DNA of 64,000 bases from positions 34,841 through 98,840 of the IMG/VR virus record IMGVR_UViG_3300033074_001413; one strand, given 5' to 3'. The notes beneath the pieces are model-generated. The model saw only the letters and a list, made by a program, of their open reading frames with translations, ran no database searches and was not told the origin of the DNA. The position numbers were made by a program, and so were the translations under genes. Within the stretch, counting starts at the first letter, position 1, and every line of letters begins with the position of its first letter. The stretch comes from a virus. Taxonomy: Duplodnaviria; Caudoviricetes. Positions 12,595 through 49,000 of this stretch are shown here, piece by piece.

Positions 12595-13740
12595 TCAATG
12601 TGCGACATTAACACGTTTCCACTTCCTACCGACGCGAATGGTGGATTTACCGACGAGTTTTGGTACACCGGATATGCGGCAATCGTCTATCTCAACCGCA
12701 CCAGCCTTGATAAGACGTTGGGCTTCGGTATTTGACGACGCCATGCCAGCCGCGACCATTACACGATCAAGACGGTCCTCCTGGACGGAGACCTCCTCAA
12801 TGTCCGTTGGCTTTTCACCACGCGTGAATTGCTTCTCCCATTCTTCCTGTGCGATGTCCGCTGATTGACGGTCATGGAGCCATTCGACAATCCTCCATGC
12901 CAGTTCGAGCTTACATATCCTTCTATCCAGGTCTGGGCTAGCCGGATTGATGAATACCTCCGGGAACAGTGTCCCCCACCAACGAAACATCAGCGCGTCG
13001 GAAATGCTCATTACCTTGCTGAACATCTCGAACGGTGCTTCATTCAGCGCGATGTGGTTGCCAAGCGACTTGGACATCTTCTGGACGCCGTCAAGCCCCT
13101 CGAGCAACGGGACTGTGGCAATAACCTGAGGCTTGGCTTTGCGTAGGCGCATGTACTCACGCCCGATCATCAGGTTGAATAGCTGGTCGGTGCCGCCAAG
13201 CTCGATGTCCACGCTCTCAATATGCGAGTCGTAGGCTTGCAGAAGTGGGTATACCAGTTCATGCAGGTGGATTGGGGATTGGTCTGCGAACCGCTTCTTG
13301 AAATCGTCGCGTGCCATGATCTGCTGGAGCGTAAAGCTCGACAATAGACGAATCACGTCCGCGAAGGAAAACTTATCGAACCATTTGTTGTTCTCATGGA
13401 CGCAGGTCTTGTCCTTATCCAGGATCTTGTAGACCTGATCCAGGTACGTAAGGGCATTCCGGCTGATGATGACCTCGTCTAAAGCGGGACGTAGGGAGTT
13501 GCGGCCAGTCGGATCACCGATTGCTGCAGTGGCAGTGCCGACGATCATCATCACGGTGTGACCGTGGTCCTGGAACGTACGAAGGGTTTTGAGCAGGACG
13601 GCGTGGCCGAGATGGAGGTCTGGTGCAGTTGGATCGAACCCGGCTTTCACACGCAGTGGCTTTCCACTCGCGATCAACGCGTCGAATTCTTTCTCATCCA
13701 CAACCTGTACGAATCTGTCACGCAGCTCCATGCCATTCAC
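12595..13740 (-). CDS. tyrS: Tyrosyl-tRNA synthetase
   Basis: GFDPTAPDLHLGH (HIGH), IGDPTG, YPLLQAYD, GGTDQ, KMSKS, C-terminal S4-like domain. Confidence 0.97.
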   Translation of the reverse strand: MNGMELRDRFVQVVDEKEFDALIASGKPLRVKAGFDPTAPDLHLGHAVLLKTLRTFQDHGHTVMMIVGTATAAIGDPTGRNSLRPALDEVIISRNALTYLDQVYKILDKDKTCVHENNKWFDKFSFADVIRLLSSFTLQQIMARDDFKKRFADQSPIHLHELVYPLLQAYDSHIESVDIELGGTDQLFNLMIGREYMRLRKAKPQVIATVPLLEGLDGVQKMSKSLGNHIALNEAPFEMFSKVMSISDALMFRWWGTLFPEVFINPASPDLDRRICKLELAWRIVEWLHDRQSADIAQEEWEKQFTRGEKPTDIEEVSVQEDRLDRVMVAAGMASSNTEAQRLIKAGAVEIDDCRISGVPKLVGKSTIRVGRKWKRVNVAH

Positions 13741-16485: not shown

Positions 16486-19400
16486 ATGGCTCTTTCATTC
16501 AATTTTGCTCCATACTTTGACGACTTTGATCCGGCCAAGCATTTCTATCGGGTAATCTTCCGGCCAGCCCAGGGTGTCCAGGTCCGTGAGCTTAACCAAA
16601 TGCAGTCTATCCTGCAGGAGCAGGTGTCTAGATTCGGCGCTTACTTCTTCAAGCATGGCGCAATGGTTATCCCAGGACAGGTTGGGTTTGATGCGAAGTT
16701 GGCCTATGTCCGTCTCAAGAGCATATCACGGCCATTCGATCCACTCATTATTGGTAAACAGGTATTCGGATTGTCAAGTGGTCTGGTTGCAGAAATTCGT
16801 GCGTACACTCCAGCAACAGTGAACGATCCTGATACGATCTATGTCAAGTATCTCAACTCCAACGTAGCTGGAGATCTTACCTTCCAGGTTGGTGAGCAGC
16901 TTCTGTTAATCGATGCCGATACCAGTATCGCCAAAGCCGAAGCCGCCGCAGCGGAACTCGCTGCCGCCACTGTGCAGCTTAGCACTGGAGTTGGGTCAGT
17001 CAGTACTCTTGATCCAATCTGGCACGTAACTAGCCCGTTGGGTGGTGGCTCTCATGCCGCTACGATTATTGACTGGAATCCATACTGGCGCGTACCTAGC
17101 GAAGGATATAACTGGATCTCGGCGAGCGGTGCTACTCAGAGTATGCCGCTTGGTGATTACACCTACAACACCGGGTTCAGCATTGATAACGGTTCGACCA
17201 GCGCAATATTCGAATACACCATCGCAGCGGATGATCTCGTTAAGTCGTTCACACTTACTGGTCCTGGTGGATACGTTGCGACGAAGGACTACTCTGCTCT
17301 AAACCTGCGTGGTGGTCTAGCCGACATGATCGACAACTTACCGGGTGACGGTAGTTATGGACTGACCATCGTTGTCGAAAATCAAGCGAGCGCATACAGT
17401 GGTCTTCAACTAAGCACTGGTCAGGGAGCAGTTGGTAGTCTAGACACTCTCTGGCAGGTGAAGGCACCAAACAGAGCAAGACGTGGTGCTGCCCTGATTA
17501 TCGATCCAATGGCTCACTGGTTCACTCCACCATCTGGTGCGAAGTGGATTGGTAGCGTGGCTGACCAGGATGTTGTCGGTGTCTATGAGTATTCCGCACA
17601 GTTCAATGTCGACACTGGAACCAACTCCAGCACGTTCACCTACTCAATAGGCGCTGATAATCGTGTGAAACAGTTGGTATTGACTGGCCCACAGGGTTTC
17701 AAGTCAACCAAGACTTATTCCGGCCAGCACTTCGGCGATGGGAACCATGGCACGTGGGGTGAGATGGTTGAGGACTCCATCAAGGGTATGCCTGATGGCG
17801 ACTACACCCTGACCGTACAAGTTGAAAATACTGAGACAGTAGTCACCGATCAAACGCCAGTCGATGCCAGCACCGGGACTGGTAGCTGGACCGTATTGAC
17901 TCCTGGCTCCGGGACATTCGTTGCAGCCAACGTTATTACCAAGGATCCACTCTGGATCGACGTGGCTGGTGCTGAATGGGTCGGTGCAAGTTCCAATGCA
18001 GTCACACAGGGTATCTACACGTTCAAGCGCGACGTCACAATCAACGCCAGCGCCAATAATGGTGTGTTCAATTACACCATCGCTGCTGATAATAGCATTA
18101 GAAAGATCACCCTAACTGGTCCTGACGGGTATATCGCCACACGCGACTACACAGAGCAGGATAGATATAGCGAAGCCATTACAGACAGTTTCTATGAGCT
18201 ACCGGGTGATGGTACCTACACAATCACGGTGGATGTAAAGAATCTGCCTGTACCAACTCGCATCCAGACTGAGTCAACAGTAATGTTGAACACCGGGTTT
18301 GGTGTGATCGGATCGAATGATAACCGCTGGACTGTAAAGGTTCCTGGTAGTGGATCATTCGTGCCAGCACACGTGATTGCTCGTGACGCTAGCTGGATGG
18401 TTGAGGGAGTGAACCAGCACTGGATCTCCGCTGGTACATCCAGTGCTGATGCTGTTCCGGCTGGAACGTACACGTTCAAGACCGAGTTCGAATTTGCATC
18501 CGGATCAGACTCCGGAGTCCTGAACTTCACTGTCGCGGCCAACGATGCTATCCGGACAGTAAAGCTGGAAGGTCCAAGCAGCTACTCCAGCACCAAGACA
18601 TATTCAGATCTAAGCAACTACCATAATGGGGAGACCATCGCTGACATATTCGATGATCTTCCTGGAGATGGCAGCTATACTCTCACCATCACGGTAGAGA
18701 ATAATGCTGGACCAGCGGTCCGTGTCAACCTTCCGACCATATCATTGAACAGTGGCTCTGGAATAGTTGGTTCTACTGACACTAAATGGACAGTGAAGCG
18801 TCCATTTAGTGGAACGTGGGACCCGGTATATGCAGTCGGTGGTGGTGCTGGTTGGTTCTCTGCCCCTGCCGGATCGCACTGGGTGTCACCGGATCATGAT
18901 AACAACGCTCTTGCGAAAGGTGTATATGAGTACGCCACTACATTCAATATTACTGGTGGGGCAGACTTAGCCACACTCACACTCGACATTGGTGCTGATA
19001 ATATCCTGAAGGATCTTGTACTAACTGGTCCTGGTGGATATTCAGTTACGCGCACATACGGAACAGACGACCGCACTGTTGCACCACTTCATGAGTCTAT
19101 AACCAACCTTCCTGGAGATGGTACTTACTGGCTGAAGATTAAAGTAGAGAACTATCCGGTTCCACAAAGAGTCCAGACTGAAAGTGCCCAATCCATTGTG
19201 ACCGGACAGGGTGGTGGAACACCTGGGACAGCTGACCGTCGGTGGACTGTTTTGAATCCAGATGCACCATCAGCGATACCAGCACCATTGGCCTCTCACC
19301 CGAACTGGTTTGCTCCAGATGCTGGTACATCCTGGATCGGATATACGGCTGGCGCAAACGCGGCACTACCACTCGATGTCGTCATCCTTTGCGATACCAC

Positions 19401-22400
19401 TGGTAGCATGGGAGCCACCATACAACAGATTAAAACAAACATCGACTCTATCGTCGATGATGTGTTTAATCAGAGTGATAACGCTAAAATCGCTATCGCA
19501 CAATATAGAGACTGGGGCGACTCGTTTGTTTATGCTGTGCCGACCCCTCTATCAGACAATAAGACTGTTATTCACGCGGCGGTCCAGGGGCTTGTTGGTG
19601 GAGAAGGTGCTGATACACCAGAATCTAACCTATACGCACTTAAGCAAGTAGCTGACACTATGAACTGGCGTGCTGGATCGATGCGCCTTATATTCTGGTT
19701 CGGTGACTCTAGCGGCCACAGTCCGTCGCCTGACGCGTCTCAGGCATATGTCCCTGGTACATCTGGCGTCACACCAGTCACGCTAGACGCTGCTGCTAAC
19801 GCCCTAACCGCCAAAGGCATTAAGGTCTATGCCACGAACGTAAATGGGTTAAATGGTGGTGGTGATGGCCTTAACGCAACAGGGCAGGCCCAATTCTTTG
19901 CTACCGCCACTGGCGGCGCTTACTTCAACGCTTTAAGCGGAAGTGAAATCGCCAGTATAATCACCGACACCATTGCTGGATTGGTCCAAAATGGTGGAGC
20001 ACCTGCTGGTGACTATACATTCTCTACCACGTTCTCAATCCGGACTGGTTCCGATTCTGCATCCTTTGTTTATAGCCTGGGATCAGACAACTCCTGTCTA
20101 TCGGTGACAGTAACTGGCCCTAGTGGGTTCCACGCGTCTAGATCACACCTTGGTGATCACTTCTTGGAAGCCCAACGCAATGACGTTCGCAATCAGACCT
20201 TTACTGGTCTGCCTGGAGATGGTGATTACACAATCACTGTCGTAGTCAACAACGCCTATGTGCCAACCGGAAACGCTGTCGGCCTATGGTTCAGCGCGGT
20301 TGTTACTCCTGCGATTGTGAGTGACAATATATCAACACAGACCGGGCTATTGGTAGCCAACGCCACAGTATCACCGAGCAAGTGGAACTATGACATCCCA
20401 TCGTCCATAGGACTTCTGGTCAGCGCCAGCGCAGTACCAAGTATCCTTGATCCGAACCATCCAACGTCAAGTGGTCTAGCAATGTCGGCGGTCTTTGTGC
20501 CACGCGTCATTGACCCACCACCAGGATCTGGATTCATGCTGAAGGGATCGGTAGCTCCTGGTACTCCAACCGGACTCCTGTTGGATAATGCGAGAGTCAT
20601 TCCAAATGTCGCATCGACGTGGACCGTTGATATCAACGACCCACTTGGGTTGACAGTATCTGCTGGTATCGAACAGGGAGTGTACTTCTATAATGGGTTG
20701 TTCGTGAGCGTCGACAAGCAGTTACTGCTGCTCAACAAATACAACAATCTGTTCACTGGTACGGTCGGTCTCAAAGTAGTTGAGAGTATCATTACCGAAG
20801 ATGATGACATCAGCTTGCTTGAGCCAGAGCAAACATCACCGAACTATACCGCTCCTGGAGCACACCGCTACAAGGTGGAGATGTTCCTTGAAGCCCGTGA
20901 CTACGACAACCCAGTAACGTCAGATTTCATTGAGTTGTTGAAGCTGACCGATTCTGCTGTAGTCACCCAGGTGACCAAGACAGATTATGATATCATTCAT
21001 CAGACTCTGGCCCGTAGGACCAAGGACCAGTGGGGCGACTACGCCAAGACACAATTCGGCATAGATGTTCGTGAACATCTTGACACCTCATGGGTGGCTG
21101 CTGGTACTGCGCAAGCAGGTGCCTCGGAGACATTTACTCCACCAGTTCCGGCAAACATCACCCTAGCCTTCTTGTCCTCCAATGTGGATAACTTCTACCA
21201 AGGATTTACCATCCACTTGAAGACTGGAGTGGGCGGCGGTCAGACAAGAACGATCACATCCTACAACGGCGCTAGCAAGATTGCCTACGTCGACAAGAAC
21301 TGGGATGTATACAAGACACCGGACAACACCACAGAATACACCATCAACGACCCAAGCAAATCCAACCGTGGAATATTCTCTCCAGCGGATGGTGGGTCCG
21401 AATCTAAACTGGCAGTCGGTATCGAAGCTGGTAAAGCATATGTGAATGGTTATGAGGTTAATAATCAACACACAACCTACATCCCTATCGATAAAGCCAG
21501 ATCTACAGAGACCCATGAAGGATCAACGTTCGCCGAGTACGGTTCTTATCTATTCGTGAAGAATCTGCATGCAATGCCAGTTCCGTCTCTAACTCAGGGA
21601 CGTGACTATCTGCAGATCTCCATAATGGGAACCAAGGCCACTGGCACCTATTCCGCCAATGACGAAATTGGTACAGCACGCGTACGCGACATTGAATTTG
21701 CCTTCGGTCCTAACCCGAACGACTCCAACGCGGTGTTCCGCATCTATCTGCAAGACATCGCAATGAAGGCCGGATACGACATCGACTTTGCGAGATCGTT
21801 CTTCCTGACCAGCGGAACCAACAATCAGAACGGGTTGAATGCCTGGGGTGATATCGTCACGGTATTCGACATGGCCAACGTTGTTGGTCAAGGATTCGTT
21901 GCTGGTAACGACATCACTGGTCCAAACGGGATTGGTACTGAGGTGGTGGTATTGTGGGATTCCCTTAACGGAGTGGTGTTCACTGAACCGAAATCCGGAA
22001 ACCCGCAGCAGATCACATCGCTTGGTCCGGTAAGTGCTACCGGGTCATCGACGGCCAATATCTCCACCAGAACACAACTGTTCGATGGATCGCTGTTCAT
22101 GAACGTCTGGCCACTAGGTCGGACGGTAGTAAACTCGCTCCATCCGGGTGCTAAACTGACAGCGCAGCCAACTGCCGTCACTAATAACACCCTTCGGTTC
22201 CCATCAAGCGCCTCGAACGCTAACGACTTCTACATCAACAATAATGTGCGCATTATCTCTGGTCCTGGCGTGGGTCAGATGCGCACCATCACTGATTACG
22301 TCGGTTCAACCAGAACGGCCACGTTCGACTCCGCATGGGACGTCGGTAATCTGCCAACCACCTCCAGTATATTCGTATGCATGGAGCCAACCATAGTCAA

Positions 22401-25400
22401 CTATCACGCACGTAAGGTGATACAGGCTACTGGTGTAAACGGCACATTTACTTTCAGTTCCACCGATCCGTTCGTACATCCGTTCAATGCATACGACTTT
22501 ATGGCGGTGTGTATCGCCAAGGGTGGTGGTAGCCCATCATTCAATGTCGGAGAGGTGATTGACCTCGGTCTGTATGCACCGGAATATCCGGTTACCAATC
22601 CGCAGTGGACACAGTTCGCCGTCCAGATTGGTAGCAGTACCGACACACTCCGGTTGGTGGCCACTGTCAACAAGACAGCACAGAACGAGAAGTACAAAGT
22701 ATGGACTCCATATTCGGTAGGTGATACTACCACCTGGATGCCATACACCAGTGGCACGGGCGCTGGTGTGCTAGCCAACGAGATCGGCCTTGAAGTGGCT
22801 GACGTCCGCGACTTCAGAGTGTACCAAGGTGTGAAGACATGGGAGATCCCATTCAACGCTTACACTAACACGTTCACTCCTGGCATGCAGGTAGTTGGTG
22901 TTACCAGTGGTGCACGCGGTCAGGTATTAGACTTTGACACCATCGGTGAGATACTCACTCTCACTTCGGTGAGCGGTACATTCCTTGATGCCGAAACAAT
23001 TGAGTGCATGTCTGATCAGACCATCACCGCTAATACCGATGGTCCGTTCACCGTTGTCTATGCCACGCCTGATCTCAATTCCGATCCGGTCAACTATGTG
23101 GAAGTCACTGACAACTACTCGTTAGACGACGGTCAGAGAGACACACATTATCAACTTGCTAAGATTATTCGGAAGCCTGGATATCCAGTTCCTCCGTCCG
23201 ACACCAATCTACTCATCACCTGGGACTACTTCAAGCATGTTGGTACTGGTGACTTCTTCAGTGTGGATTCCTATCTCGGACAGGTCGCATATCAGGACAT
23301 CCCAGTCTATGAGAACTCACTTGGCCGTTCATACCCACTACGTGACAGTCTGGACTTCCGTCCTACCATCAGTTCGAATGGGTTGAATTTTCATGCTGCT
23401 GGTAGCGTGTGGTCCGACCCATTGCTAGTCGGCGATCAAATCACTTATTCCTCTGTCTACTATCTGGACAGAATTGACAAGATCTTCCTCGCGGAGGACG
23501 GCACGTTCAAAGTTAACCGTGGTACTTCATCGTTGACTCCGGTGCCACCAGAGAACATTCCTAACACAATGCTTCTCTACACGCTGCATCTCGATGCCTA
23601 TACAATGGGACCGAAGGCAGTCAAGGCTAAAATGACCGATAATCGCGGATACACAATGCGCGACATCGGTAAACTCGAAAAGCGCATTGAGAATCTTGAG
23701 TATTACACACAGCTTAATCTGCTCGAGCAGGACACAGCCAAACATCAGGTCAGAGACACTAAAACCGGACTGGATCGCTACAAGAACGGATTCGTGGTTG
23801 ATAATTTCAAGAGCCACGGAACTGGGAATGTGTGGGATGTAGACTACAACTGCGCCGTCGATAATGCGGTTGGTGAACTTCGCCCACAATACTATCAGGA
23901 CAATGTCGGTATCGAATATGTGAGTGATCAGTCGACGGGAGTCATCAGAGTGGGCACCACTCTCCCAGGCGACATCCTGATGCTGCCATACTCGCACGAG
24001 GCAGTGGTCAGTCAGCCACTCAGTACCAGAGTAGAGAATGTTAATCCATTCACCAACTTTGGATGGGGTGGTAGTCTCGAACTAATCCCACCATCTGATG
24101 AATGGCGCGACACCGCTCGTCGTCCAGATGTTCTGGTCAACGACGATAATGCTATGCGCTACATCAACAGACCACTTGGTGTGGTTTGGAATGAGTGGCA
24201 GACTAACTGGACTGGTGAGTGGTCCGACACCAGCGCTCGTACGATTAATTCATCTTCGACTTCGACGCGTAGCTCTGATGACGTCATCACCAATACGACG
24301 AATACGACCACGGAAGTAACGCAAACCCGTGACGTGCAGCAGTCTAGATCTGGGACCCGCACTACAGTTGTTCCACAGACAGTGCGCGTGGATACCGTAG
24401 ACCGTGTTGTGAACGTGGAGACAATTCCGTTCATTAGATCTCGCGTAGTTCAGTTCATCGGCAAGAGGATGAAACCAAAGACGCGTGTCTACCCATACTT
24501 CGATGGTAGATTCGTGGGACAGTGGGTTAGACCAACCCGCGTTCCTGGGTTGACCCCATACATTATCCCATTCGACGAAGCACCAATTCAGGCCGACAAC
24601 AACGCGCTTGGACTAACAAGCGACACGTCGACTCCAAGTGAAACGTTGGCTGCTGGCTCTACCGATATCACCAATATCAACACTGGTGCGCCACTTGTCA
24701 GACCGACTGGTAACCCTGGACCAAGCGGGGAAGCTACGACCAACGCGTCGTCTTCGGATAGAACTACTCCTCCAACAACCACTGGAGCAGACCTTACTTC
24801 CGGTCGCATGGTTCCAAATGATACCATAGACAGGTTGCGAGTGGTGGCTCCTGGTGTATGGAGTCTTCCGGCCACATTCATACAGAACAACATTGATATC
24901 GGCAAGACCCTTGGTGGGGCTGCTCAACCTACGCTTCACCCGTTCACGCCAATGCCATTGGTGGTCCCAACCATCACGGCACGCGACATCAACGTGACGG
25001 CGATCCGTGACGCACATACCGAACTAACTGGTCGGACAGACCGTGAATGGAGTCTGCCAACACCAGCTATGACCGTAGCTGGAACGGCAATCACGCCGAC
25101 AGTGACATTCAGACCATCTCCGGACTGCGTGGTAGTTAAAGTATCTGGCGACAGTCAAGCAATAATGGCAAGCCAGACATTCCCACAACCACTGGTTGTA
25201 CAGGTCAACCGCAGTGGAATTCCAGTGTCTGGTGCTACAGTGCAATGGAAAGTCACTGGGCCAGCAATAGTTTCGGGACTAGGGACACGTGAAGGCGTAG
25301 TAGCGACGGATGCCGTTGGTAGAGCGCAGGTGACTGTTACTGCCAGCGATGCTCCTGGGGCTATAGTGGTCACCGCCGACATCGGCGGAACGCCAATCCA

Positions 25401-28400
25401 GTTCAATCTATCAACCACGTTCAACACTAACCGGGTTACCGGAGCAGTGGCAACTGGTCCAGCCATCATCCCAACCGGAGCGTTTGTTGGAGGTGGTGCA
25501 CCAACTACCGTGGTAATGGGTACAGAGACGACCATTGATGGCGTCAATCCAGCTACGACACTATTCAGAACCAACACTACTGGCGGAGACCGTGGAGTAG
25601 CTCCTATCGCACCGACACCTCCAACGGTGGCAAGTGATCTGTTGTCCATTCAGACCTCTCTACAGAAGATTTTAGAGGCGTATGGGAAGGATCCAACGGC
25701 GTTGCTTGGTGCTGGACACCAAGTGGGCGTTCCATACTACGTCAGTGAGTTAGGCAAGAATTACACAGTGGTAGGATACACTTCAACGTGGCAACCGATT
25801 GTTATTGTCCCACGTTCGGATGCTAGCAAATATGCTACTGATGTATACTCTATCAGTCTATCCACTGGCGCTCTAGCCTATATCGTCAACGACGAAGGAT
25901 ACGCAATATTCAAGCAGCAGCAAAGTGGCACCGCCATGATGATGCCTGGAGTGCAGATCACATGGCTTGGTGGTACAACCGGACGCAACGACACGCTAGT
26001 GCGCATATTCCAGCCAGGGGCGGCTACAACAGTAACAACTGGTGTGGTGGCCACTGCGTCTACGGCACTAACGTCGAATCAACTCAACGATGCCCGCGCC
26101 GTCATCATGGCCAACCCAGGTATTCTACTTCAGATTTCTGGGCTAACCAATGAGGAACAACATGTTAGCTCGGTCACGGAGATCAACAATCTCCTGGTCG
26201 CCAAGCCAGAGGTAGCAAGCGCTGTACTGTCAGGCAGGACTGATACATCCACAAGCAGCATCACGACGTCAGTTCAGAGTGGCTCCGCCAGATTCCAAAT
26301 GCTGGATGACCCAATCAGAATTGATCCGGCCACTTACAGCCTCAGCCAGTCCACTCTGGCTCCAACGGCAACCATTCCGACAGGTACGGCGTTCGGTAAT
26401 GAACCGAAATATGGCGACCCTCTCTACACCAACGGGGTTGGTACAGTAACTGGGGAATTCTGGATTCCTAACACAGATGCTATCCACTTCCGTGTTGGTC
26501 GGAGATTGTTCCGCCTCACCAGTAGCCCGAATAACAACAAGAACGCTGAGACGTGGGCTGACGCCGTGTACTCAGCGCAGGGTACGCTATACACCAATCA
26601 GCGGACAGTAACTAGCATTCGTGAGCCACACTACGTCGTCGAGAACCTGTACGACTCCGCAAGCTATACCGAGACACAAACCGACCTTCGATTCGAGTCA
26701 CAGTCCTGGGATGAACCAGCTCCTCAACCAATCGAGCCTCCAGCACCAGTCGTTATTGACCATAATCCGACTCCTGTGATTACGGAAGCGACCAGGACCA
26801 CGACGGAAGCAACTAGAACTACTACAGAGGTAGCTCCGCCAGCAACCGAGCCAGAGCCTCCGGTGTTTGAGCCACCAATAGAAGAGCCACCTCCACCAGC
26901 GCCAGACCCACCACCTCCAGTGGTGTTGAGTGTGACGACCACAACCACGTCCACGTCAACTTGGTTCGACCCATTAGCTGAGACATTCCTGGTGGACACC
27001 AAGGGTGGGTACTTCCTGTCGAAGATTGACTTGTTCTTCGCGAGTATCGATCCACGCATGCCAGTGACCGTCCAAATCAGAACGACCGTAAACGGGTACC
27101 CAAGCAAGAAGGTTCTACCGTTCGCCGAGAAGACCATGTACCCAGAGACCGGGGCGATCAAGGTGAGCGATGATGGTAGCATTCCGACCACATTCGAGTT
27201 CCCAGTTCCAGTATATCTGGAAGAGAACCAGGAATACGCCTTCGTGGTGATGGCCAACACCAACAACTACCTGCTGCACACAGCAAGAATGGGTGAACGA
27301 GCGTTCACAACTGGTGCGGTTGTCAATCAGCAACCATACGCTGGTGTTATGTTCAAGAGCCAGAATGCCAGTACCTGGAGTGCTGACCAACTCGAAGATA
27401 TAAAGTTCACGATATACAGAGCCAAATTCGATGTATCGTCCCAGGCCACAGTATACTTCCGCAATAAGGATCTCGATACTGTAGTGCTTGGAAACAACCC
27501 ATTCCATACCGCACAAGGTAGCGACATCGTTCGTGTCCTACACAGCGATAATGGAATGGTCCGCAGCAATGACAAAGGAAGCGTCGTTACCATCGGGCAT
27601 GTCCAGGATGCTCCTATCAACGGAATCCCGGCTGCGGCCTTGGTCGGCGACTTCACGGTGGAGTCCGTTGATCTGGACGCCTACACCATCAAGGCCAATC
27701 TAGCGGGAGATTTCGACAAGGCAACCATTAGCAATGGTATATCCGGTCCATCGTTGGTAGAGGTCAGCAGGGAGTTCCAATACAACCTGATGCACCCAAC
27801 GTTCGGTACCATGATTATGCCTGGAACCGGAATAAGCTGGTTCGCACGCACCATTAGCGGTAAGGCAGTTCATAACAATGAGCTGGCCACACAAACACCA
27901 TTCCAGAAGAGTGATTTCGTGGCCATTGTGCCGAACACCAACATTGAGTATAGCGTTCCACAAATGATCGCTACTACCAAGACAGAGACACTGAATGTGG
28001 TTGGCAACAGTCCGTTCGATAGAAGATCACTTCTATTCCGTGCCGTGATGTTCACCACACAGGACAACTTGACACCAATGGTTGACCTGCAGAGAATGAG
28101 CGCAATTGTTGTCCACAACAGGTTGGATGATCCAAACTTCAACAACCAAACGTTACCACTACACGACAAGGGAGTGACATTTACCGCCACCTCCGATGAG
28201 TTCATTGAGTTCGGTGGATATGACCATCTGGAAGTAACCGGAGTAGCAGAGAGCGGTGGAGCTACCAGTATCAATATCGGTAGCCTCGGTGTAGAGATTG
28301 ACGACTACTATGTGAACATGTCGGTGAAGGTGATTGCCGGAAGCGGCCAGGGTGAAGAGAAAATCATCACCGCTTACAGTGCACTAACTCGTGACGCCAC

Positions 28401-29298
28401 AGTCGACAGTGCGTGGCACACCAACCCAGATAGCACATCCCAGTTTGAAATCTGGAGAGGACAGTCCATGCATCTTCGCAAGAAGGTATTGTCCGCAACA
28501 GCGACCCGTGGAGCCAACAGTAGTGTCAACATCGCTGGTCCAGTAACGGCACCGGATGTCTACAAGGGTATGATCGTGAGGATAGTTGGTGGCACTGGTG
28601 CTGGACAGGAGCGCGAGATTATCAGCTACCAAACCGACGGTAGCCACTCCCCAGAAGGGAAGATCACCGTCGACTCACCATGGCTTGTGAATCCGTCCAA
28701 TACCAGCAGCATTATCATTCTAAGCTATGGAACCGATCTCAACTTCGATAATATGCACGCTGGTCGTGGTATCGTCATCAGTGGGGCTAACAACTCAGCC
28801 AACAACCATGACATCGACAATACCGTCCAGATCATCAAGGTGACACGCAACATAATGACTTGCAACACCACGTTCAAGCCCGAAAAAGGTAGTGGTGGCG
28901 TGGTAATCACGGCATACGACAAATATATCAGTGAGGAGGCGTCTGGTGGGTGCTCCGCATCAAGTCGTTACATCACCAAGCGGTTTACTCTGAACCAGTC
29001 GGCTAATTCACTCCGACTGACACTGAGTATATCGAGACCAGTAGGTAGCTTCGTAGATGTCTACTACAAGACACTCTTGATGGACGCCGGAAGCCACTTC
29101 GATGATGTGCCATATACCTATATGGAACTGGAACCTGGAGTGAATATGGAGCCACAGGATGACTTCGTAGACTACAACTTTGTTGCGGACGAAATTGGTG
29201 ACTTTACCACATTCTGCTTCAAGATCGTTATGCGCGGCGGTAATACCAGTAAGGTTCCAAGGATCAGAGACCTTCGCGGAATTGCTCTTGGTACATAA
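16486..29298 (+). CDS. Giant VrlC/DUF4815-like baseplate protein with inserted nested beta-sandwich repeats, vWA and Ig-like (Big_1) domains
   Basis: PYFDDFD...YRVIFRP...QVRELNQMQSILQ N-terminus; YTMRDIGKLEKRIENLEYYT; DPLAETF; C-terminus PRIRDLRGIALGT; vWA MIDAS DTTGSM. Confidence 0.9.
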   Translation: MALSFNFAPYFDDFDPAKHFYRVIFRPAQGVQVRELNQMQSILQEQVSRFGAYFFKHGAMVIPGQVGFDAKLAYVRLKSISRPFDPLIIGKQVFGLSSGLVAEIRAYTPATVNDPDTIYVKYLNSNVAGDLTFQVGEQLLLIDADTSIAKAEAAAAELAAATVQLSTGVGSVSTLDPIWHVTSPLGGGSHAATIIDWNPYWRVPSEGYNWISASGATQSMPLGDYTYNTGFSIDNGSTSAIFEYTIAADDLVKSFTLTGPGGYVATKDYSALNLRGGLADMIDNLPGDGSYGLTIVVENQASAYSGLQLSTGQGAVGSLDTLWQVKAPNRARRGAALIIDPMAHWFTPPSGAKWIGSVADQDVVGVYEYSAQFNVDTGTNSSTFTYSIGADNRVKQLVLTGPQGFKSTKTYSGQHFGDGNHGTWGEMVEDSIKGMPDGDYTLTVQVENTETVVTDQTPVDASTGTGSWTVLTPGSGTFVAANVITKDPLWIDVAGAEWVGASSNAVTQGIYTFKRDVTINASANNGVFNYTIAADNSIRKITLTGPDGYIATRDYTEQDRYSEAITDSFYELPGDGTYTITVDVKNLPVPTRIQTESTVMLNTGFGVIGSNDNRWTVKVPGSGSFVPAHVIARDASWMVEGVNQHWISAGTSSADAVPAGTYTFKTEFEFASGSDSGVLNFTVAANDAIRTVKLEGPSSYSSTKTYSDLSNYHNGETIADIFDDLPGDGSYTLTITVENNAGPAVRVNLPTISLNSGSGIVGSTDTKWTVKRPFSGTWDPVYAVGGGAGWFSAPAGSHWVSPDHDNNALAKGVYEYATTFNITGGADLATLTLDIGADNILKDLVLTGPGGYSVTRTYGTDDRTVAPLHESITNLPGDGTYWLKIKVENYPVPQRVQTESAQSIVTGQGGGTPGTADRRWTVLNPDAPSAIPAPLASHPNWFAPDAGTSWIGYTAGANAALPLDVVILCDTTGSMGATIQQIKTNIDSIVDDVFNQSDNAKIAIAQYRDWGDSFVYAVPTPLSDNKTVIHAAVQGLVGGEGADTPESNLYALKQVADTMNWRAGSMRLIFWFGDSSGHSPSPDASQAYVPGTSGVTPVTLDAAANALTAKGIKVYATNVNGLNGGGDGLNATGQAQFFATATGGAYFNALSGSEIASIITDTIAGLVQNGGAPAGDYTFSTTFSIRTGSDSASFVYSLGSDNSCLSVTVTGPSGFHASRSHLGDHFLEAQRNDVRNQTFTGLPGDGDYTITVVVNNAYVPTGNAVGLWFSAVVTPAIVSDNISTQTGLLVANATVSPSKWNYDIPSSIGLLVSASAVPSILDPNHPTSSGLAMSAVFVPRVIDPPPGSGFMLKGSVAPGTPTGLLLDNARVIPNVASTWTVDINDPLGLTVSAGIEQGVYFYNGLFVSVDKQLLLLNKYNNLFTGTVGLKVVESIITEDDDISLLEPEQTSPNYTAPGAHRYKVEMFLEARDYDNPVTSDFIELLKLTDSAVVTQVTKTDYDIIHQTLARRTKDQWGDYAKTQFGIDVREHLDTSWVAAGTAQAGASETFTPPVPANITLAFLSSNVDNFYQGFTIHLKTGVGGGQTRTITSYNGASKIAYVDKNWDVYKTPDNTTEYTINDPSKSNRGIFSPADGGSESKLAVGIEAGKAYVNGYEVNNQHTTYIPIDKARSTETHEGSTFAEYGSYLFVKNLHAMPVPSLTQGRDYLQISIMGTKATGTYSANDEIGTARVRDIEFAFGPNPNDSNAVFRIYLQDIAMKAGYDIDFARSFFLTSGTNNQNGLNAWGDIVTVFDMANVVGQGFVAGNDITGPNGIGTEVVVLWDSLNGVVFTEPKSGNPQQITSLGPVSATGSSTANISTRTQLFDGSLFMNVWPLGRTVVNSLHPGAKLTAQPTAVTNNTLRFPSSASNANDFYINNNVRIISGPGVGQMRTITDYVGSTRTATFDSAWDVGNLPTTSSIFVCMEPTIVNYHARKVIQATGVNGTFTFSSTDPFVHPFNAYDFMAVCIAKGGGSPSFNVGEVIDLGLYAPEYPVTNPQWTQFAVQIGSSTDTLRLVATVNKTAQNEKYKVWTPYSVGDTTTWMPYTSGTGAGVLANEIGLEVADVRDFRVYQGVKTWEIPFNAYTNTFTPGMQVVGVTSGARGQVLDFDTIGEILTLTSVSGTFLDAETIECMSDQTITANTDGPFTVVYATPDLNSDPVNYVEVTDNYSLDDGQRDTHYQLAKIIRKPGYPVPPSDTNLLITWDYFKHVGTGDFFSVDSYLGQVAYQDIPVYENSLGRSYPLRDSLDFRPTISSNGLNFHAAGSVWSDPLLVGDQITYSSVYYLDRIDKIFLAEDGTFKVNRGTSSLTPVPPENIPNTMLLYTLHLDAYTMGPKAVKAKMTDNRGYTMRDIGKLEKRIENLEYYTQLNLLEQDTAKHQVRDTKTGLDRYKNGFVVDNFKSHGTGNVWDVDYNCAVDNAVGELRPQYYQDNVGIEYVSDQSTGVIRVGTTLPGDILMLPYSHEAVVSQPLSTRVENVNPFTNFGWGGSLELIPPSDEWRDTARRPDVLVNDDNAMRYINRPLGVVWNEWQTNWTGEWSDTSARTINSSSTSTRSSDDVITNTTNTTTEVTQTRDVQQSRSGTRTTVVPQTVRVDTVDRVVNVETIPFIRSRVVQFIGKRMKPKTRVYPYFDGRFVGQWVRPTRVPGLTPYIIPFDEAPIQADNNALGLTSDTSTPSETLAAGSTDITNINTGAPLVRPTGNPGPSGEATTNASSSDRTTPPTTTGADLTSGRMVPNDTIDRLRVVAPGVWSLPATFIQNNIDIGKTLGGAAQPTLHPFTPMPLVVPTITARDINVTAIRDAHTELTGRTDREWSLPTPAMTVAGTAITPTVTFRPSPDCVVVKVSGDSQAIMASQTFPQPLVVQVNRSGIPVSGATVQWKVTGPAIVSGLGTREGVVATDAVGRAQVTVTASDAPGAIVVTADIGGTPIQFNLSTTFNTNRVTGAVATGPAIIPTGAFVGGGAPTTVVMGTETTIDGVNPATTLFRTNTTGGDRGVAPIAPTPPTVASDLLSIQTSLQKILEAYGKDPTALLGAGHQVGVPYYVSELGKNYTVVGYTSTWQPIVIVPRSDASKYATDVYSISLSTGALAYIVNDEGYAIFKQQQSGTAMMMPGVQITWLGGTTGRNDTLVRIFQPGAATTVTTGVVATASTALTSNQLNDARAVIMANPGILLQISGLTNEEQHVSSVTEINNLLVAKPEVASAVLSGRTDTSTSSITTSVQSGSARFQMLDDPIRIDPATYSLSQSTLAPTATIPTGTAFGNEPKYGDPLYTNGVGTVTGEFWIPNTDAIHFRVGRRLFRLTSSPNNNKNAETWADAVYSAQGTLYTNQRTVTSIREPHYVVENLYDSASYTETQTDLRFESQSWDEPAPQPIEPPAPVVIDHNPTPVITEATRTTTEATRTTTEVAPPATEPEPPVFEPPIEEPPPPAPDPPPPVVLSVTTTTTSTSTWFDPLAETFLVDTKGGYFLSKIDLFFASIDPRMPVTVQIRTTVNGYPSKKVLPFAEKTMYPETGAIKVSDDGSIPTTFEFPVPVYLEENQEYAFVVMANTNNYLLHTARMGERAFTTGAVVNQQPYAGVMFKSQNASTWSADQLEDIKFTIYRAKFDVSSQATVYFRNKDLDTVVLGNNPFHTAQGSDIVRVLHSDNGMVRSNDKGSVVTIGHVQDAPINGIPAAALVGDFTVESVDLDAYTIKANLAGDFDKATISNGISGPSLVEVSREFQYNLMHPTFGTMIMPGTGISWFARTISGKAVHNNELATQTPFQKSDFVAIVPNTNIEYSVPQMIATTKTETLNVVGNSPFDRRSLLFRAVMFTTQDNLTPMVDLQRMSAIVVHNRLDDPNFNNQTLPLHDKGVTFTATSDEFIEFGGYDHLEVTGVAESGGATSINIGSLGVEIDDYYVNMSVKVIAGSGQGEEKIITAYSALTRDATVDSAWHTNPDSTSQFEIWRGQSMHLRKKVLSATATRGANSSVNIAGPVTAPDVYKGMIVRIVGGTGAGQEREIISYQTDGSHSPEGKITVDSPWLVNPSNTSSIIILSYGTDLNFDNMHAGRGIVISGANNSANNHDIDNTVQIIKVTRNIMTCNTTFKPEKGSGGVVITAYDKYISEEASGGCSASSRYITKRFTLNQSANSLRLTLSISRPVGSFVDVYYKTLLMDAGSHFDDVPYTYMELEPGVNMEPQDDFVDYNFVADEIGDFTTFCFKIVMRGGNTSKVPRIRDLRGIALGT

Positions 29299-34441: not shown

Positions 34442-34872
34442 TGAAAAGACAAACGCTAGCATCGCGTGGTAGGGCCGTCATAGTACAACAGGCCCCACCA
34501 CCGAAACCAGCGCCGACTGGTATTAAGATTCAGATCAGGCAGGACGTCCGAAGGGGTTAGTTCAGCTTAGCGGCGGCGTCCCACAAACGCTCCGGGACCG
34601 CTTCTGCAGTGAGGCTGACGACGGAAGTTTTGTCGTAGGTCTCGATGTTGTTGCCAGCGATCATCCGACAGGCTTCTTGAATCAGTTCCTCGGTGACTTC
34701 GAATTCGACTGGGATCTTGGGACCCTCGGCGGTGACGGTGCCATCTTCGGATATCTCATCAAGGGATATGCTGAAGCCCATGATCACTCCAGCCTGTGGG
34801 CATTTACCTAAGCGGATAGCGTGGGCGATTCCTCCCACATAAGCGGAGTGTAGCAAAGCGCGTGCACGGAGT

Positions 34873-43026: not shown

Positions 43027-46000
43027 ATGCCAGCAATAGACTTTAACGTCGCGCCGTACAACGATGACTGGAGCGCATCGAAGAAATTCTACAGGATTCT
43101 CTTCCGTCCAGAAGCACCAGTTCAAGCTAGAGAGCTAACCCAACTCCAGACCATTCTTCAAAACCAGATATCCAGATTTGGTGACCATATATTCAAGCAT
43201 GGTTCTGTGGTAACTGGTGGGGCGGTTTCGACGAACTTCTTCGCTGGCTATGTCCGTCTGAAACCATCTTTCGGTGAACTAGATGGCAATCCAGTTCCAA
43301 TCAATATTGCCCTTTTCACCGACAAGATTATCGAGAGTGATGTCAACGGCATTGAAGCCCAAGTGTTGTATGTGGTTGATGTGACTACCAACGACCCTCC
43401 AACGCTCTATGTATCATACCTGAACAGCGGTCGCGATGGCAAAGTAAAGACGTTCCAACCGGGTGAGCAGCTTCGCATCAAAGGGACCCAAAACTATCTG
43501 ATGCAGGTCGATGACACCAACCCAACCGGGTTGGCCGCACTTGGTCATATCAACTCTGGTGTCTACTATATTCGCGGTATTTTCGCAAACGTAGACAAGC
43601 AGACCATTATCCTCAACAAGTACAACAACATATTCAATGGTCGCATGGGTCTAAAGATTGTGGAGTCTATTGTAGCTCCAGAGGAAGACCTATCACTACT
43701 TGATAACGCTCAAGGGTTCTACAACTACGCAGCGGCTGGCGCTCACCGCTATAAGATTGACTTGGTGCTCGAGTCCAGATCGCTGGATATTACAGATGAC
43801 ACCAACTTCGTTGAGCTATATCGTTACAAAGAGAGTGTAGTACAACGTAAGGTAGATAAGACAGTCTACAACGTCCTGGCTGACGAACTAGCCCGCAGAA
43901 CCTATGACGAGTCTGGCGATTACACCGTGCGCCCGTTCGGGATTGATGTGCGTGAACACCTCGACACCTCGTTTGTGGCATCCGGAACAGCACAATCTGG
44001 AACGGCGTTGATTCTTAATCCACCGAATCCAGAAGTTCCGGCAACCATCGTCCTTGCATTATCAGCGTCCGCAACTGACGATGACTACAACGGGATGCAG
44101 GTATACATCGCTGACGGTAAAGGTGCTGGTCAGAAACGTAACATCACCACATACGTTGGGGCTACTAGAACCGCTAGCGTGGATACTGATTGGGATCAGT
44201 ACAAGACTCCAGATAGCACATCCACCTTCGTAGTTATCGACCCAACTAAGATCAACCGTGGAATATACCCACCACCAACTGGTAACGAGGCAAAGCTGGC
44301 CGTTGGTATCGAGCCTGGAAAGGCATACGTCAACGGGTATGAGATCGAGACCCAAGCCACCAAGTACGTCGATGTTGACAAGGCACGAGACTCCTCATTA
44401 GCGAATAACTCCATTGTCAACACGGCACTCGGCAACTACTTTCTCGTTAAGAATATTAGTAATGTCGCATTGCCAGCACAGAACTCCGTCAATCGCAACT
44501 ACCTGCAGATAGCAATTTCGAGGAATAGACCAACAGTCGCGGATGCTAGTCCACTTGCCGCCGAAATAATGGGCTATGCACGTGTCAGATCCATTGAGTT
44601 CCATCAAGGCATTGGACCAGCAGATCCAATGGCCGTCTTCAAGATGTATGTCTTCGACGTGCAGATGAACTCAAACGAAGACATTAACCTAGCGCGTCAC
44701 TTCTTCCTATTCAACACATCCGACAATAGTAATGGCGGCAGTGCAGTGGCTTGCTATGGAGATATTTGTACATCTTTCCAAGTGAGAAATGTGGTTGGTG
44801 CCGGGTTAGTGCCAGCAGCCGTTATCAGCGGTCCTAACTCTATTGGTACGGAGAAAGTGGTATCCTATAGCCCTCAGGCTGGCATACTGCTCACCGAACC
44901 AATTGCCGGGACTGGTCAGCCTATTACAGGGACCGGACAGGGTTCCGTTAGCTCGACGACGTTCCAAATCATCTCCCGCAGAGAACTGAACGAGCCAGAG
45001 AAGAATCTCCTGGTATACCCACTCAACCAGACGGTTGTCAAGACTCTGAAGCCAAGTGGAGTAGCGGACACATCCTACACCGTTCGTAGGGTTCTTGAAG
45101 TACAAGCCAACGGTAGCGCCGAATTCATTTTCAGCTCACCGGACGCGCCATTCATGCCGTACAATCAGTACGATTATCTGGCAATCATCACCGATAGTGG
45201 TTCAATCACGCCTGGAACATGGACTGAAGGAACGGTCCTTGACCTGTCAGTATTCGACGTGACTTTCCCGGCCAGCAATCCGCCTAACAGCACGCTGATG
45301 ATTAAGTACCCGAGCACCCCAATATTCAACGGGAAGATCAAGCTGGTATGCACGGTACACAAACCATTGGTTGTGGAAAAGAAGAAGCAGCTGAATAAGT
45401 ATTTGGCGAATGCCGCGAACACCTTTAAGACATTCACAACTCCGACCCCTATTCTCCAGCTTGACGTGTGCGACGTTCTGAACGCCCGCGTGCTGATGGG
45501 AACTCAGGAAAACGTCGACCCAGTTTTGGACATTCCAACCACCTGGACAGATGTTACCAACAGATACACCTTGGATGATGGTCAGAGAGACAACCATTAC
45601 GCTCTAGCCAAGCTCACCCTACGGGCTGGTCAGCCATCTCCTCCAAACAACATCTCCGTGCGCGTCTACTACGACTATTTTGTGCACAGTGGAACTGGCG
45701 ACTACTTCTCCGTTGACTCCTACAAGGGGCAGGTCAACTACGCCGATATCCCAGTCTACACCAGCTCGACTGGTAAGAAATACCCGCTGCGTGATTGTCT
45801 TGACTTCCGTCCACGCATGGACAACACTGGCATCAACTTCGTAAAGACCGGAGCCAGCTTCTCCGATTTGGTTAAGCCAAATGATGTGGTGATTTGCGAC
45901 TATGAATACTACCTCGACAGAATCGACAAGATATTCATTGATCGGAATGGTGAATTCCATGTAATCAGAGGCAACCCATCCTTAACTCCGGTACCACCGG

Positions 46001-49000
46001 AGAACCCGAAAGACGGGATGCTCCTCTATACATTGGCTATTGAAGCATACACCATCAACACCAAGGCCGTCAAGACCCGCATGACGGAGAACAAACGGTA
46101 CACAATGCGCGACATCGGTAAGCTCGAAAAGCGTATTGAGAACCTTGAGTACTACACGTCACTTAACCTCCTTGAAAAAGACACAGCCGATATGAAGGTG
46201 ACCGACACCACTACCGGGCTGGATCGCTTCAAGAACGGGTTTATTGTAGACAACTTCAAGAACCATAACATCGGGAACGTATATGACTCTGACTACCATT
46301 GCAGCATCGACCCAGTAATTGGTGAGATGCGGCCAGAGTTCATCCAGGACAACATCAACCTTGAGTTTGTGCCACAGCCAATCTCATCCGGGTACAAGCT
46401 AGTCGGTCCGAACAACGACGTGATCATTCTCCAGTATACGGAGAAGGAGTGGGTGAAGCAACCATACTCTACCAGAATTGAGAACGTTAATCCGTTCGCT
46501 ATTTTCGGATGGGCCGGAACGGTGACTCTCGATCCACCGACCGATACCTGGAGAGATACTACCCGCGCACCAGACATTCTGGTGAACGATGACAGCGCCT
46601 ACAATGCCTACATCGCTGCACATGGTACATCTAGTGTGGTATGGAATGACTGGCAGACCACCTGGACTGGTGAGACAATCGAGACAGTCGAGCAACTCAA
46701 CAATGCCTGGACTGGTGTGTTCGAAGTGCAACGTGGTACCGAAATTCCAGGCACCAGAACTGGTCCGTTTGTCCCTGGATTTGGTGTTCGTGCACAAATT
46801 CAAATTGATGAGAGAGTAACCCAGACACGCAATGGCGTGACATCGCGCACCGGAACTCGCACGACGGTTGTTCCAAACACCGTACGTACTGAGACCACTG
46901 ACAGAGTCATCAGCGTTCAAACAGTTCCATTCATCCGCAACCGTATAGTCAAGTTCATTGGTAAAAGGATGAAGCCTAACACGAGGGTGTATCCATTCTT
47001 CGATAGTGTGGCTATATCCAAGTTCATCCGTCCAACGAGAGAAGCAGGGATGACTGATGCCACATTCCCGCTACCACAGTTCGATTCGACATACCTTCCG
47101 GTGTGGAACGACCCACTGTACACCAATGGCATTGGCACTGTCACTGGTGACTTCGATATTCCGAACAGAGACGATATCCGGTTCCGCGTTGGTACCAGGA
47201 TATTCCGTCTAACAAGCGACCCACTCAATGGACAGAACCCAGAGACATGGGGTGACGCCACCTATACCGCAGCCGGGTTGATTGAAACGCGTCAGGCGAC
47301 CATTACATCAATTAGGGAGCCACGCTTCGTTACGGAGAATATCTCCGAATCGCAGTCTATCCATGAGACCAACGTATTCACACGGTCTACGATTATTGAA
47401 GGATGGGTGGACCCACTTGCAGAAACATTCCTGTGCGACATGAAGGGTGGTATGTTCCTGACCAGAGTAGACCTATACTTTGCGTCGAAGGACGACAACA
47501 TTCCAGTCACTCTTCAGATCCGTAACGTTGAGAATGGTTATCCTGGGAAGAGAGTACTCCCATTCGGCGAAGCCACCCTCTACCCACAGACTATTGGCGA
47601 GGGCCAGATCTACACATCTGATGATGGGTCTGCGGCCACCACATTCCACTTCCCTGCTCCGGTATACCTGGAAGAGAAGCAGGAATATTGCTTGGTCGTA
47701 ATGGCCAACTCCACAAAGTATCTCGTCCATACAGCAAGAATGGGTGAAACGGCTTTCGGCAGCACCAATGTGGTCAGCCAACAGCCATACGCTGGCGTCA
47801 TGTTCAAGAGCCAAAATGCTAGTACATGGACCGCCGAACAGCTTGAAGATATCAAATTCACTCTCTACCGCGCCAGCTTCGATCCGCTGGTTCAGGCTAA
47901 TGTCTACTTCCAGAACGAGGACAAGAGCACCTATGGTAGCCTAGCCCTTGGTGGTGCTGATAACAGTCCGGAAGCGTTTATCACTCTATCCGGAACTGCT
48001 AGCACCGTAGATGACTACTACAAGGGCCAGTTTGTAAGGATCCATTCCACTGCTGCCGCCAACCAAGAGAGGGAAATTCTCTCATACAACGGCACCACCA
48101 AGGTGGCTACTGTTACCCCGGCGTGGACGGTTGTTCCTGGTGTGGATACGTTCTACTCTGTTGGTCCGAGATCGCTAACCCAAACATGGACGATATTAGA
48201 CGACGCTCCGTTCCAGACAGTAGAAGGGAGCAATGTTGTAAGAGTATTCCATGGCACACACGGTATGCCTAAGGGTCTATCCAAGAACAGCGTGGTAATC
48301 ATTGGTAATGTTCTGGAAGGATCCTATAATGGTATTCCGCATACCGATCTAATGGGTCAATTCGTAATTGATAATGTCGAGCTAGACGCCTATACCATCG
48401 AGACATCTACTAGCGCCACGGCATCAGGTAAGACTGGTCCATCTGGGGTGTTTGCCACGCAGAACAGGCAATACGACGTTTTATATCCTATCGCCAGCCA
48501 GATGGTGGTCGCTGGCACAGCAGTTGACTGGCAGTTCAAAACCACATCAGGTAAATCGCCACACAACAATGCCCAAGCCTCACAAAACCCATACGATAAG
48601 GACCAGACGTTCGCGCCAGTCACAGTCAACCAGAACGTGTACTTCAAGACACCACGTGTGATTGCGAGCACCATTAACGAAACTCAGAACATTGCTGGTG
48701 CCTCAACGTTCGACAAGAAATCAGCCATATTCCAGGCTACAATGTCCACAACGGCTGAGCACCTCTCTCCAATGATCGATTCCAAAAGGCTTGGATTAAT
48801 ATGTGTGAACAACCGAATTGACGATCCTAACTTCACTAACATCACCTTAGCCAGCCTTGACCAGGGTGTGGTAGTCAACACCGGGTTGACTCCATATACC
48901 ATGGCTATCGATGCGGCCACTGGTTGCCTGTCATGGGAAGATGCAAATGATCGCGACCTAAGCGTATTCAAGCCGGGTCACTATATCACGGTCATCGGTG

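Follow-up and report, generated by a model that had tools for sequence, protein, structure and literature searches.

A 64,000-nucleotide stretch of viral DNA (the window; Duplodnaviria, Caudoviricetes; positions 34,841 to 98,840 of IMG/VR record IMGVR_UViG_3300033074_001413, a linear 98.8-kb virus sequence with an estimated completeness of ~55%) encodes a 4,270-amino-acid (aa) VrlC-type virion protein, P0001, that carries an insertion of ~1,230 aa. The insertion is probably a recursive, Russian-doll array of domains in a surface loop of this baseplate-type protein, in which six jelly-roll repeats (R1 to R6) would be nested one within another and a von Willebrand factor A (vWA) domain sits inside the sixth. 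We regard this nested reading of the sequence as the best one because four arguments combine, namely the count of the strands involved, their motif, their spacing and the topology of the insertion.

The host open reading frame (ORF; 16486–29298, plus strand, like all features below unless stated) is uninterrupted and matches both Pfam DUF4815 (PF16075; E 7e-53, 180.2 bits against a gathering cutoff of 30) and phrog_358 (1,417 bits). A 2,236-aa DUF4815 paralog without the insertion is encoded further downstream (43027–49737) and served as the reference for the insertion boundaries. The N-termini of the two proteins can be aligned up to about residue 147 of P0001 and 157 of the paralog, and BLASTP aligns residues 1381–1887 with paralog residues 161–676; ~1,230 aa of P0001 (residues 148–1379) stand in place of ~5 aa in one paralog loop. 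Between the host domain and R1 lies an Ala/Glu-rich lead-in (residues 148–162; 16927–16971), recognized by its composition and by the end of the paralog alignment at ~147, and the chain re-enters the DUF4815 domain at residues 1380–1400 (20623–20685), where P0001 from 1381 onward corresponds to the paralog from 161 onward. As parts of one host domain, the two flanks are separated by only ~5 residues in the paralog, so that the chain must return to its starting point. In terms of topology, the insertion starts and finishes in a single loop, and 107 residues have to retrace six domains.

The six repeats begin at positions 16972, 17404, 17860, 18283, 18742 and 19192 (residues 163, 307, 459, 600, 753 and 903), are 31–42% identical in pairs, and each terminate in VEN, VKN or VNN. 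A profile of R1–R5 recovers all six, R6 in two pieces (residues 908–959 and 1170–1261). The R1 body, a jelly roll minus its last strand, covers residues 163–299 (16972–17382; profile match 163–305, VEN end). Profile, pairwise alignment and VxN end place R2 at residues 307–448 (17404–17829), R3 at 459–586 (17860–18243) and R4 at 600–739 (18283–18702). R5 (residues 753–889; 18742–19152) is placed by the same three criteria and has an AlphaFold2 (AF2) model with a predicted local distance difference test (pLDDT) score of 81–95. R6 is split into a first part that runs up to the vWA insertion point (R6a, residues 903–958; 19192–19359; profile positions 5–57) and a second part with a VNN end (R6b, residues 1166–1256; 19981–20253; profile positions 56–143; pLDDT 62–83).

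These repeats belong to an unnamed galactose-binding-like jelly-roll family of bacterial surface proteins. Among 1.84 billion representative sequences, the R1–R5 profile gave 579 matches at E ≤ 1e-3, with values down to 1e-33, and a clean family alignment of the jelly-roll bodies contains 32 rows. The relatives are secreted or surface proteins of bacteria: small PEP-CTERM proteins, proteins sorted by the type IX secretion system (T9SS), dockerin-bearing proteins and giant multi-domain adhesin-like proteins. The fold assignment is based on the R5 model, which matched the N-terminal sugar-binding domains of glycoside hydrolase family 2 and carbohydrate-binding modules, including CBM61, with middling VIA Z scores of 8–9.6 (121–134 residues, root-mean-square deviation (rmsd) 2.8–3.4 Å), and on faint Pfam matches of the relatives to Glyco_hydro_2_N2 and BetaGal_ABD2. 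No Pfam model covers the repeat domain, and a sequence-profile search of the PDB with it returned nothing significant.

The innermost level of the array, the insertion of the vWA domain in R6, is solid. The domain (residues 959–1165; 19360–19980) splits R6 after 'WIGYTAGAN', and R6 resumes at about residue 1166. It was identified by Pfam VWA (PF00092; residues 964–1122, 31.9 bits, cutoff 23.8) and VWA_4 (PF25106; 27.4 bits, cutoff 27), and its metal ion-dependent adhesion site (MIDAS) comprises D970-T-T972-G-S974, T1044 in 'DTPE' and D1074 in 'WFGD'. In a 14-sequence alignment, the MIDAS columns D, T, S and D do not vary and the second-loop Asp hardly does; the third MIDAS-loop position is Thr rather than Ser throughout this vWA subfamily. 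In the second of two AF2 runs described below, the domain was modeled at a pLDDT of 80–96, and the model matched integrin betaI domains with VIA Z scores of 20–21 (rmsd 2.6–3.0 over ~200 residues). Other vWA domains, those of the alphaM I domain and TFIIH p44, were nearly equal (Z about 19.7), so that the rank of the betaI domains as top matches does not by itself make the modeled domain specifically integrin-type.

An earlier reading, made from the sequence without database searches, had described one 4,270-aa frame with a loop insertion of about 1,200 aa relative to the paralog, six repeats at the positions given above that end in VEN, VKN or VNN, and a vWA domain with a MIDAS inside R6. Each of these descriptions holds under profile, Pfam, alignment and model comparisons. 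The same sequence-only reading had all six repeats stopping short of their last strand, with six such strands following in a row after R6. All six strands are present, and the last strand is indeed missing from R1–R5, but R6 has a normal one of its own.

In 54/54 full-length family instances (149 other proteins), VxN is succeeded 5–13 residues later by a '(P)TGLxVxGxV' strand, and a contiguous last strand is also found in the family consensus (three alignments). R1–R5 lack it: here, VxN is followed by a Pro-rich linker of 7–13 residues and then by the 'xLSTGxG' first strand of the next repeat. The six strands after R6 lie at residues 1264–1273, 1285–1295, 1307–1317, 1328–1338, 1347–1356 and 1361–1371 (20275–20598). 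The first, s1 (AVGLWFSAVV; 20275–20304), is the ordinary contiguous last strand of R6; its G1266 is 10 residues past N1256, inside the canonical spacing, and AF2 builds it as a strand (pLDDT ~50). Because s1 follows R6 at the normal distance, there are five orphan strands and not six, which match in number the five strand-less repeats R1–R5. These are s2 (QTGLLVANATV; 20338–20370), s3 (SIGLLVSASAV; 20404–20436), s4 (SSGLAMSAVFV; 20467–20499), s5 (GSGFMLKGSV; 20524–20553) and s6 (PTGLLLDNARV; 20566–20598), each 10–11 residues long, with prolines on both sides and glycines at G1287, G1309, G1330, G1349 and G1363. We propose that s2, s3, s4, s5 and s6 complete R5, R4, R3, R2 and R1, respectively.

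With a position-specific scoring matrix (PSSM) of the 54 canonical strands, the six strands rank 1, 2, 6, 13, 15 and 21 among 4,260 positions, s5 having the top score of the whole protein. The pattern G[LF][LWAMIVT][LFVM]x2-5V has six matches in the 4,270 aa, all within one 108-residue stretch, while 1,000 shuffles gave at most two in any 110-aa window; the pattern was composed after the six strands had been seen, which makes the shuffle figure descriptive only. No cluster of orphan strands occurs in the other 149 family proteins, where the domains are single or in tandem and always complete.

The spacing of the strands mirrors that of the repeats. The forward distances from VxN to the glycine of the next STG are 13, 16, 18, 18 and 18 residues for junctions 1–2 to 5–6, and the return distances between successive GL glycines are, in chain order, 21, 22, 21, 19 and 14. 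When matched in reverse (nested) order, the two series differ by +1, +3, +3, +4 and +3 (r = 0.99), whereas the differences in parallel order range from +8 to −4; 6/120 permutations equal the fit of the nested order. Such mirror spacing is what an antiparallel, out-and-back chain would predict, and it is independent of the motif argument.

According to the nested reading, the chain would leave the host domain and build six homologous jelly-roll bodies in succession, each beginning in the loop before the last strand of the preceding domain. A complete vWA domain would be made within the sixth body, after which the returning chain would lay down the missing last strand of repeats 6, 5, 4, 3, 2 and 1 in turn and rejoin the host domain within a few residues of its exit point. 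This would yield a six-domain, two-chain stalk, which we infer to be extended and which would then measure very roughly 20–25 nm. At its tip would stand an integrin-beta-like vWA domain that could use its MIDAS and a divalent cation to bind a host-cell surface ligand, suggesting an adhesive role.

A more speculative proposal, which we consider very unlikely, takes the stalk as a mechanical signaling device or has its strands exchanged between neighboring subunits to lock the baseplate ring. In the signaling variant, both chain passes end in one baseplate loop and each domain is shut by a strand of the return pass; ligand capture by the vWA domain might then tug at the return strands, or unzip them, and send a signal to the baseplate, akin to the swing-out of the integrin hybrid domain.

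Several observations weigh against the nested reading or limit it. The PSSM is not significant for single strands (mean null maximum 8.7 bits, against 2–5 for s2, s4 and s6), and 5/6 strands have Ser, Asn or Ala where the canonical 'xGxV' has its conserved Gly. The spacing test consists of just five pairs (p about 0.05). Both AF2 runs build the R5 body confidently (pLDDT about 80–95) without a distal strand, and neither places s2 on R5. No homolog with the insertion, and hence none with another repeat number, was found in the collections searched (see below). The first of these points would also suit the idea that the strand motifs are a chance similarity in a low-complexity linker, with no structural role, for the single-strand scores lie within the range of shuffled sequences. 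This idea is highly improbable, given that 6/6 pattern matches fall in one 108-residue stretch where shuffling never put more than two in a window and that the number of strands equals the number of repeats.

The AF2 runs are weak tests of the pairing because R6a and the return strands lack homologs that could give the alignment depth. Run 1 covered residues 753–1300 with an alignment of whole canonical proteins, which put their last strands onto the R5–R6 linker and thereby biases against nesting. R5 was confident (pLDDT 81–95), the vWA domain and R6a were poor and s2 reached about 40; the forward linker took the last-strand position at a pLDDT of about 30, pushed there by the alignment. Run 2 covered residues 740–1306 with rows trimmed to the domain bodies plus four trimmed vWA rows; with more than about four of the latter, MAFFT pulls rows of the jelly roll into the vWA block. 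Here, quality was good to fair for R5, vWA and R6b, and s1 formed a strand at a pLDDT of about 50; s2 was not a strand and remained unplaced (about 25), and disorder was seen in the forward linker (27–41). A confident R5 body without its last strand does not make this strand dispensable, since the core covered by the family alignment scores well regardless. In both models, the first segment of R5, 'SLNSGSG', lies outside any sheet, which fits a missing partner strand without being proof of it. A complex prediction of the R3, R4 and R5 bodies (32-row alignments) with residues 1276–1342 gave ipSAE values of 0.26 and 0.28 (mark 0.32) without controls and speaks neither for nor against the pairing. 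The stalk of the sequence-only reading, in which each domain is inserted before the last strand of the previous one, thus keeps its footing in the five orphan strands, the 54/54 family rule and the antiparallel spacing, and not in the modeled pairing, as s2 was left unplaced in both runs.

These models are also where a plain tandem array would find its support. R1–R5 would then be autonomous, slightly reduced jelly rolls and residues 1274–1379 a Pro-rich extended tether; the forward linker would occupy the last-strand slot, or the sheet would have one strand fewer, and the strand-like motifs would be undocked relics. The confident folding of the R5 body without the distal strand agrees with this, as do the alternating, strand-capable patterns of three forward linkers (RIQTES, RVNLP and RVQTES) and the linker in the last-strand slot of run 1, although the latter has a pLDDT of about 30 under an alignment that pushes it there. 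With the unbiased alignment of run 2, however, the linker is disordered (pLDDT 27–41). The forward linkers also lack the GL signature of 54/54 canonical strands and have low PSSM scores, with one exception, a weak match at 304 that overlaps the first strand of R2. A tandem array would moreover leave unexplained why there are exactly five surplus family-specific strands, spaced by 14–22 residues and matching in mirror order. We hold this main rival to be unlikely.

Incomplete domains and surplus strands would be equally compatible with pairing between subunits, that is, with complementation in trans by donor-strand exchange as in chaperone-usher pili, and VrlC-type proteins are abundant in the baseplate (PMC4621102), so neighboring copies should be near. 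This arrangement, or one in which the strands form a separate small beta module, is quite unlikely in our view. An intramolecular antiparallel return predicts the mirror-order spacing, which neither a swap nor a module needs, and the anchoring of both insertion ends in one loop favors a return path along the outgoing array. As to a separate module, six strands of 10–11 residues joined by Pro-rich linkers of 4–11 residues would probably make a poor globular sheet.

The sequence-only reading had also taken the architecture to be without precedent, and this does not stand: recursive nesting within one domain family is already known from RpoC2 SI3, and a vWA domain within a sandwich from integrin beta. 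In SI3 of cyanobacterial RpoC2, one domain family is inserted recursively into itself, with eight domains and six levels (PMC13114784). As proposed for P0001, a small beta-domain family is nested there, and the chain leaves a large host protein and comes back to it at a single loop. The domains of SI3 are of the hybrid-motif (SBHM) type, in contrast to the galactose-binding-like jelly roll of P0001; its host is the trigger loop of a polymerase and not a virion protein, and its tip bears no adhesion domain, whereas that of P0001 would bear a vWA domain. The nesting in SI3 comes from cryo-electron microscopy and AlphaFold models, while that in P0001 is argued from sequence logic only.

In integrin beta, the hybrid beta-sandwich hosts an inserted vWA domain (betaI) that bears a MIDAS (PMC12383024); the sandwich itself is located within the PSI-to-EGF1 chain. 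As in the R6 and vWA unit of P0001, two chain passes connect the vWA domain to the sandwich. Integrin beta has only one or two nesting levels, however, the R6 sandwich is a jelly roll of another family, and the MIDAS reads DxTGS in P0001 and DxSxS in integrin. Integrin beta carries an acidic pair after 'SM', the ADMIDAS, in place of which the P0001 domain has 'GA'. For a model of R6a, vWA, R6b and s1, the best Foldseek matches were all integrin beta headpieces (E 9e-14). VIA alignments of 257–280 residues cross both R6 halves (model residues 169–550; 9p6s_B, for example, with Z 20.5 and rmsd 5.0 over model residues 172–537); their rmsd of 5–8 Å reflects domains that are oriented differently, and the pLDDT of R6a is low. 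The modeled sandwich-vWA-sandwich unit of R6 thus resembles the hybrid/betaI arrangement of integrin beta.

Bacterial surface vWA proteins share 36–42% identity with the vWA domain of P0001; PEP-CTERM or DUF11 repeats occur in many of them, and several have precomputed Pfam Integrin_beta matches. A vWA domain 32–43% identical to that of P0001, with the same DTTGSM and WFGDxxGH motifs, is encoded in over 500 metagenome stretches (loci L033–L112 among these), for the most part of soil, wetland and freshwater origin. The bacterial vWA relatives do not carry the jelly roll, and the combination of R6 and vWA was for this reason not found ready-made. For both modules of the arm, the jelly roll and the vWA domain, the sole relatives detected are in bacterial surface proteins; those of the jelly roll are of the same domain family as the repeats but complete, single or in tandem.

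The assignment of P0001 to the baseplate is a reasonable inference from its homology to VrlC. By Pfam and phrog it is a member of the VrlC/DUF4815 proteins, with 34–40% identity to VrlC of cyanophages and pelagiphages; a tblastn search with the paralog retrieved proteins annotated as 'VrlC' or 'virion structural' at 34–40% identity, from T4-like cyanophages, Pelagibacter and Methylophilales myophages and pf16-like phages. In virions, VrlC is abundant, and its homolog in Listeria phage A511 was immunolocalized to the baseplate (PMC4621102), which supports the earlier description of P0001 as a baseplate protein. In Synechococcus phage ACG-2014b, a 2,645-aa VrlC homolog (locus L113, 4454–13923) is encoded immediately downstream of the baseplate wedge gene gp8, a position seen in that cyanophage and not in this window. 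The ACG-2014b homolog lacks the insertion in the equivalent loop, which is just ~10 residues longer than that of the paralog.

None of the VrlC/DUF4815 homologs seen carries this insertion. Among proteins of similar length to P0001, only P0001 itself was retrieved, and the protein collections held no shorter protein that combines R6b with the strands. The best non-self match of the R1–R5 profile among the 1.84 billion representatives was a bacterial T9SS protein, and no relative of the insertion was found there, nor in IMG/VR searched with both the protein and the profile. The repeat was absent from 50,697 phage genomes searched by tblastn and occurs in its own virus record in this gene only; the ESM Atlas gave no usable match to the insertion.

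If the nesting is true, P0001 would be among the deepest recursive domain insertions known, with a host domain, six jelly rolls and a vWA domain, or seven insertion events in one chain. To the known systems it would add a jelly-roll fold, other than that of the RNA polymerase SI3, a host protein of phage baseplate type, and an integrin-like metal-binding module at the tip. A phage could in this way grow a rigid, doubly anchored, receptor-reaching arm from a single loop. The arrangement would imply a rule by which bodies and return strands are gained and lost in pairs, and the vWA domain stands as a concrete candidate for a cation-dependent baseplate adhesin in an uncultured T4-like phage.

Among the forward linkers of the array, 3–4 (18244–18282) and 5–6 (19153–19191) are clearly alike (LPVPTRIQTEST and YPVPQRVQTESA), and linker 4–5 is different. 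This likeness hints that the array may have grown by duplication of a two-repeat unit; within a nest, such a duplication would require copying two return strands as well.

The host strand right after the insertion (DPLGLTVSAG, residues 1385–1394; 20638–20667) resembles the last-strand motif and ranks third by PSSM, and its counterpart in the paralog is NPTGLAALGH, at about residues 164–173. This 'PLGL' strand is not evidence of an eighth layer: an hhalign comparison of the repeat family with the paralog's N-terminal domain gave a probability of 0.3%, i.e., no relation.

P0001 has a second expansion relative to the paralog at 24574–26928 (residues 2697–3481), where 785 aa correspond to ~99 in the paralog. 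It is bounded by the BLAST blocks 2201–2696/837–1349 and 3482–3665/1449–1635 (P0001/paralog), has no Pfam match, and includes an Ig-like-looking segment and a low-complexity stretch rich in Pro, Thr and Glu.

Upstream of the P0001 gene, on the minus strand, a 381-aa ORF (12595–13740) matches phrog_9270, annotated as tyrosyl-tRNA synthetase, over nearly its full length (E 8e-75). Genes resembling aminoacyl-tRNA synthetases are uncommon in phages.

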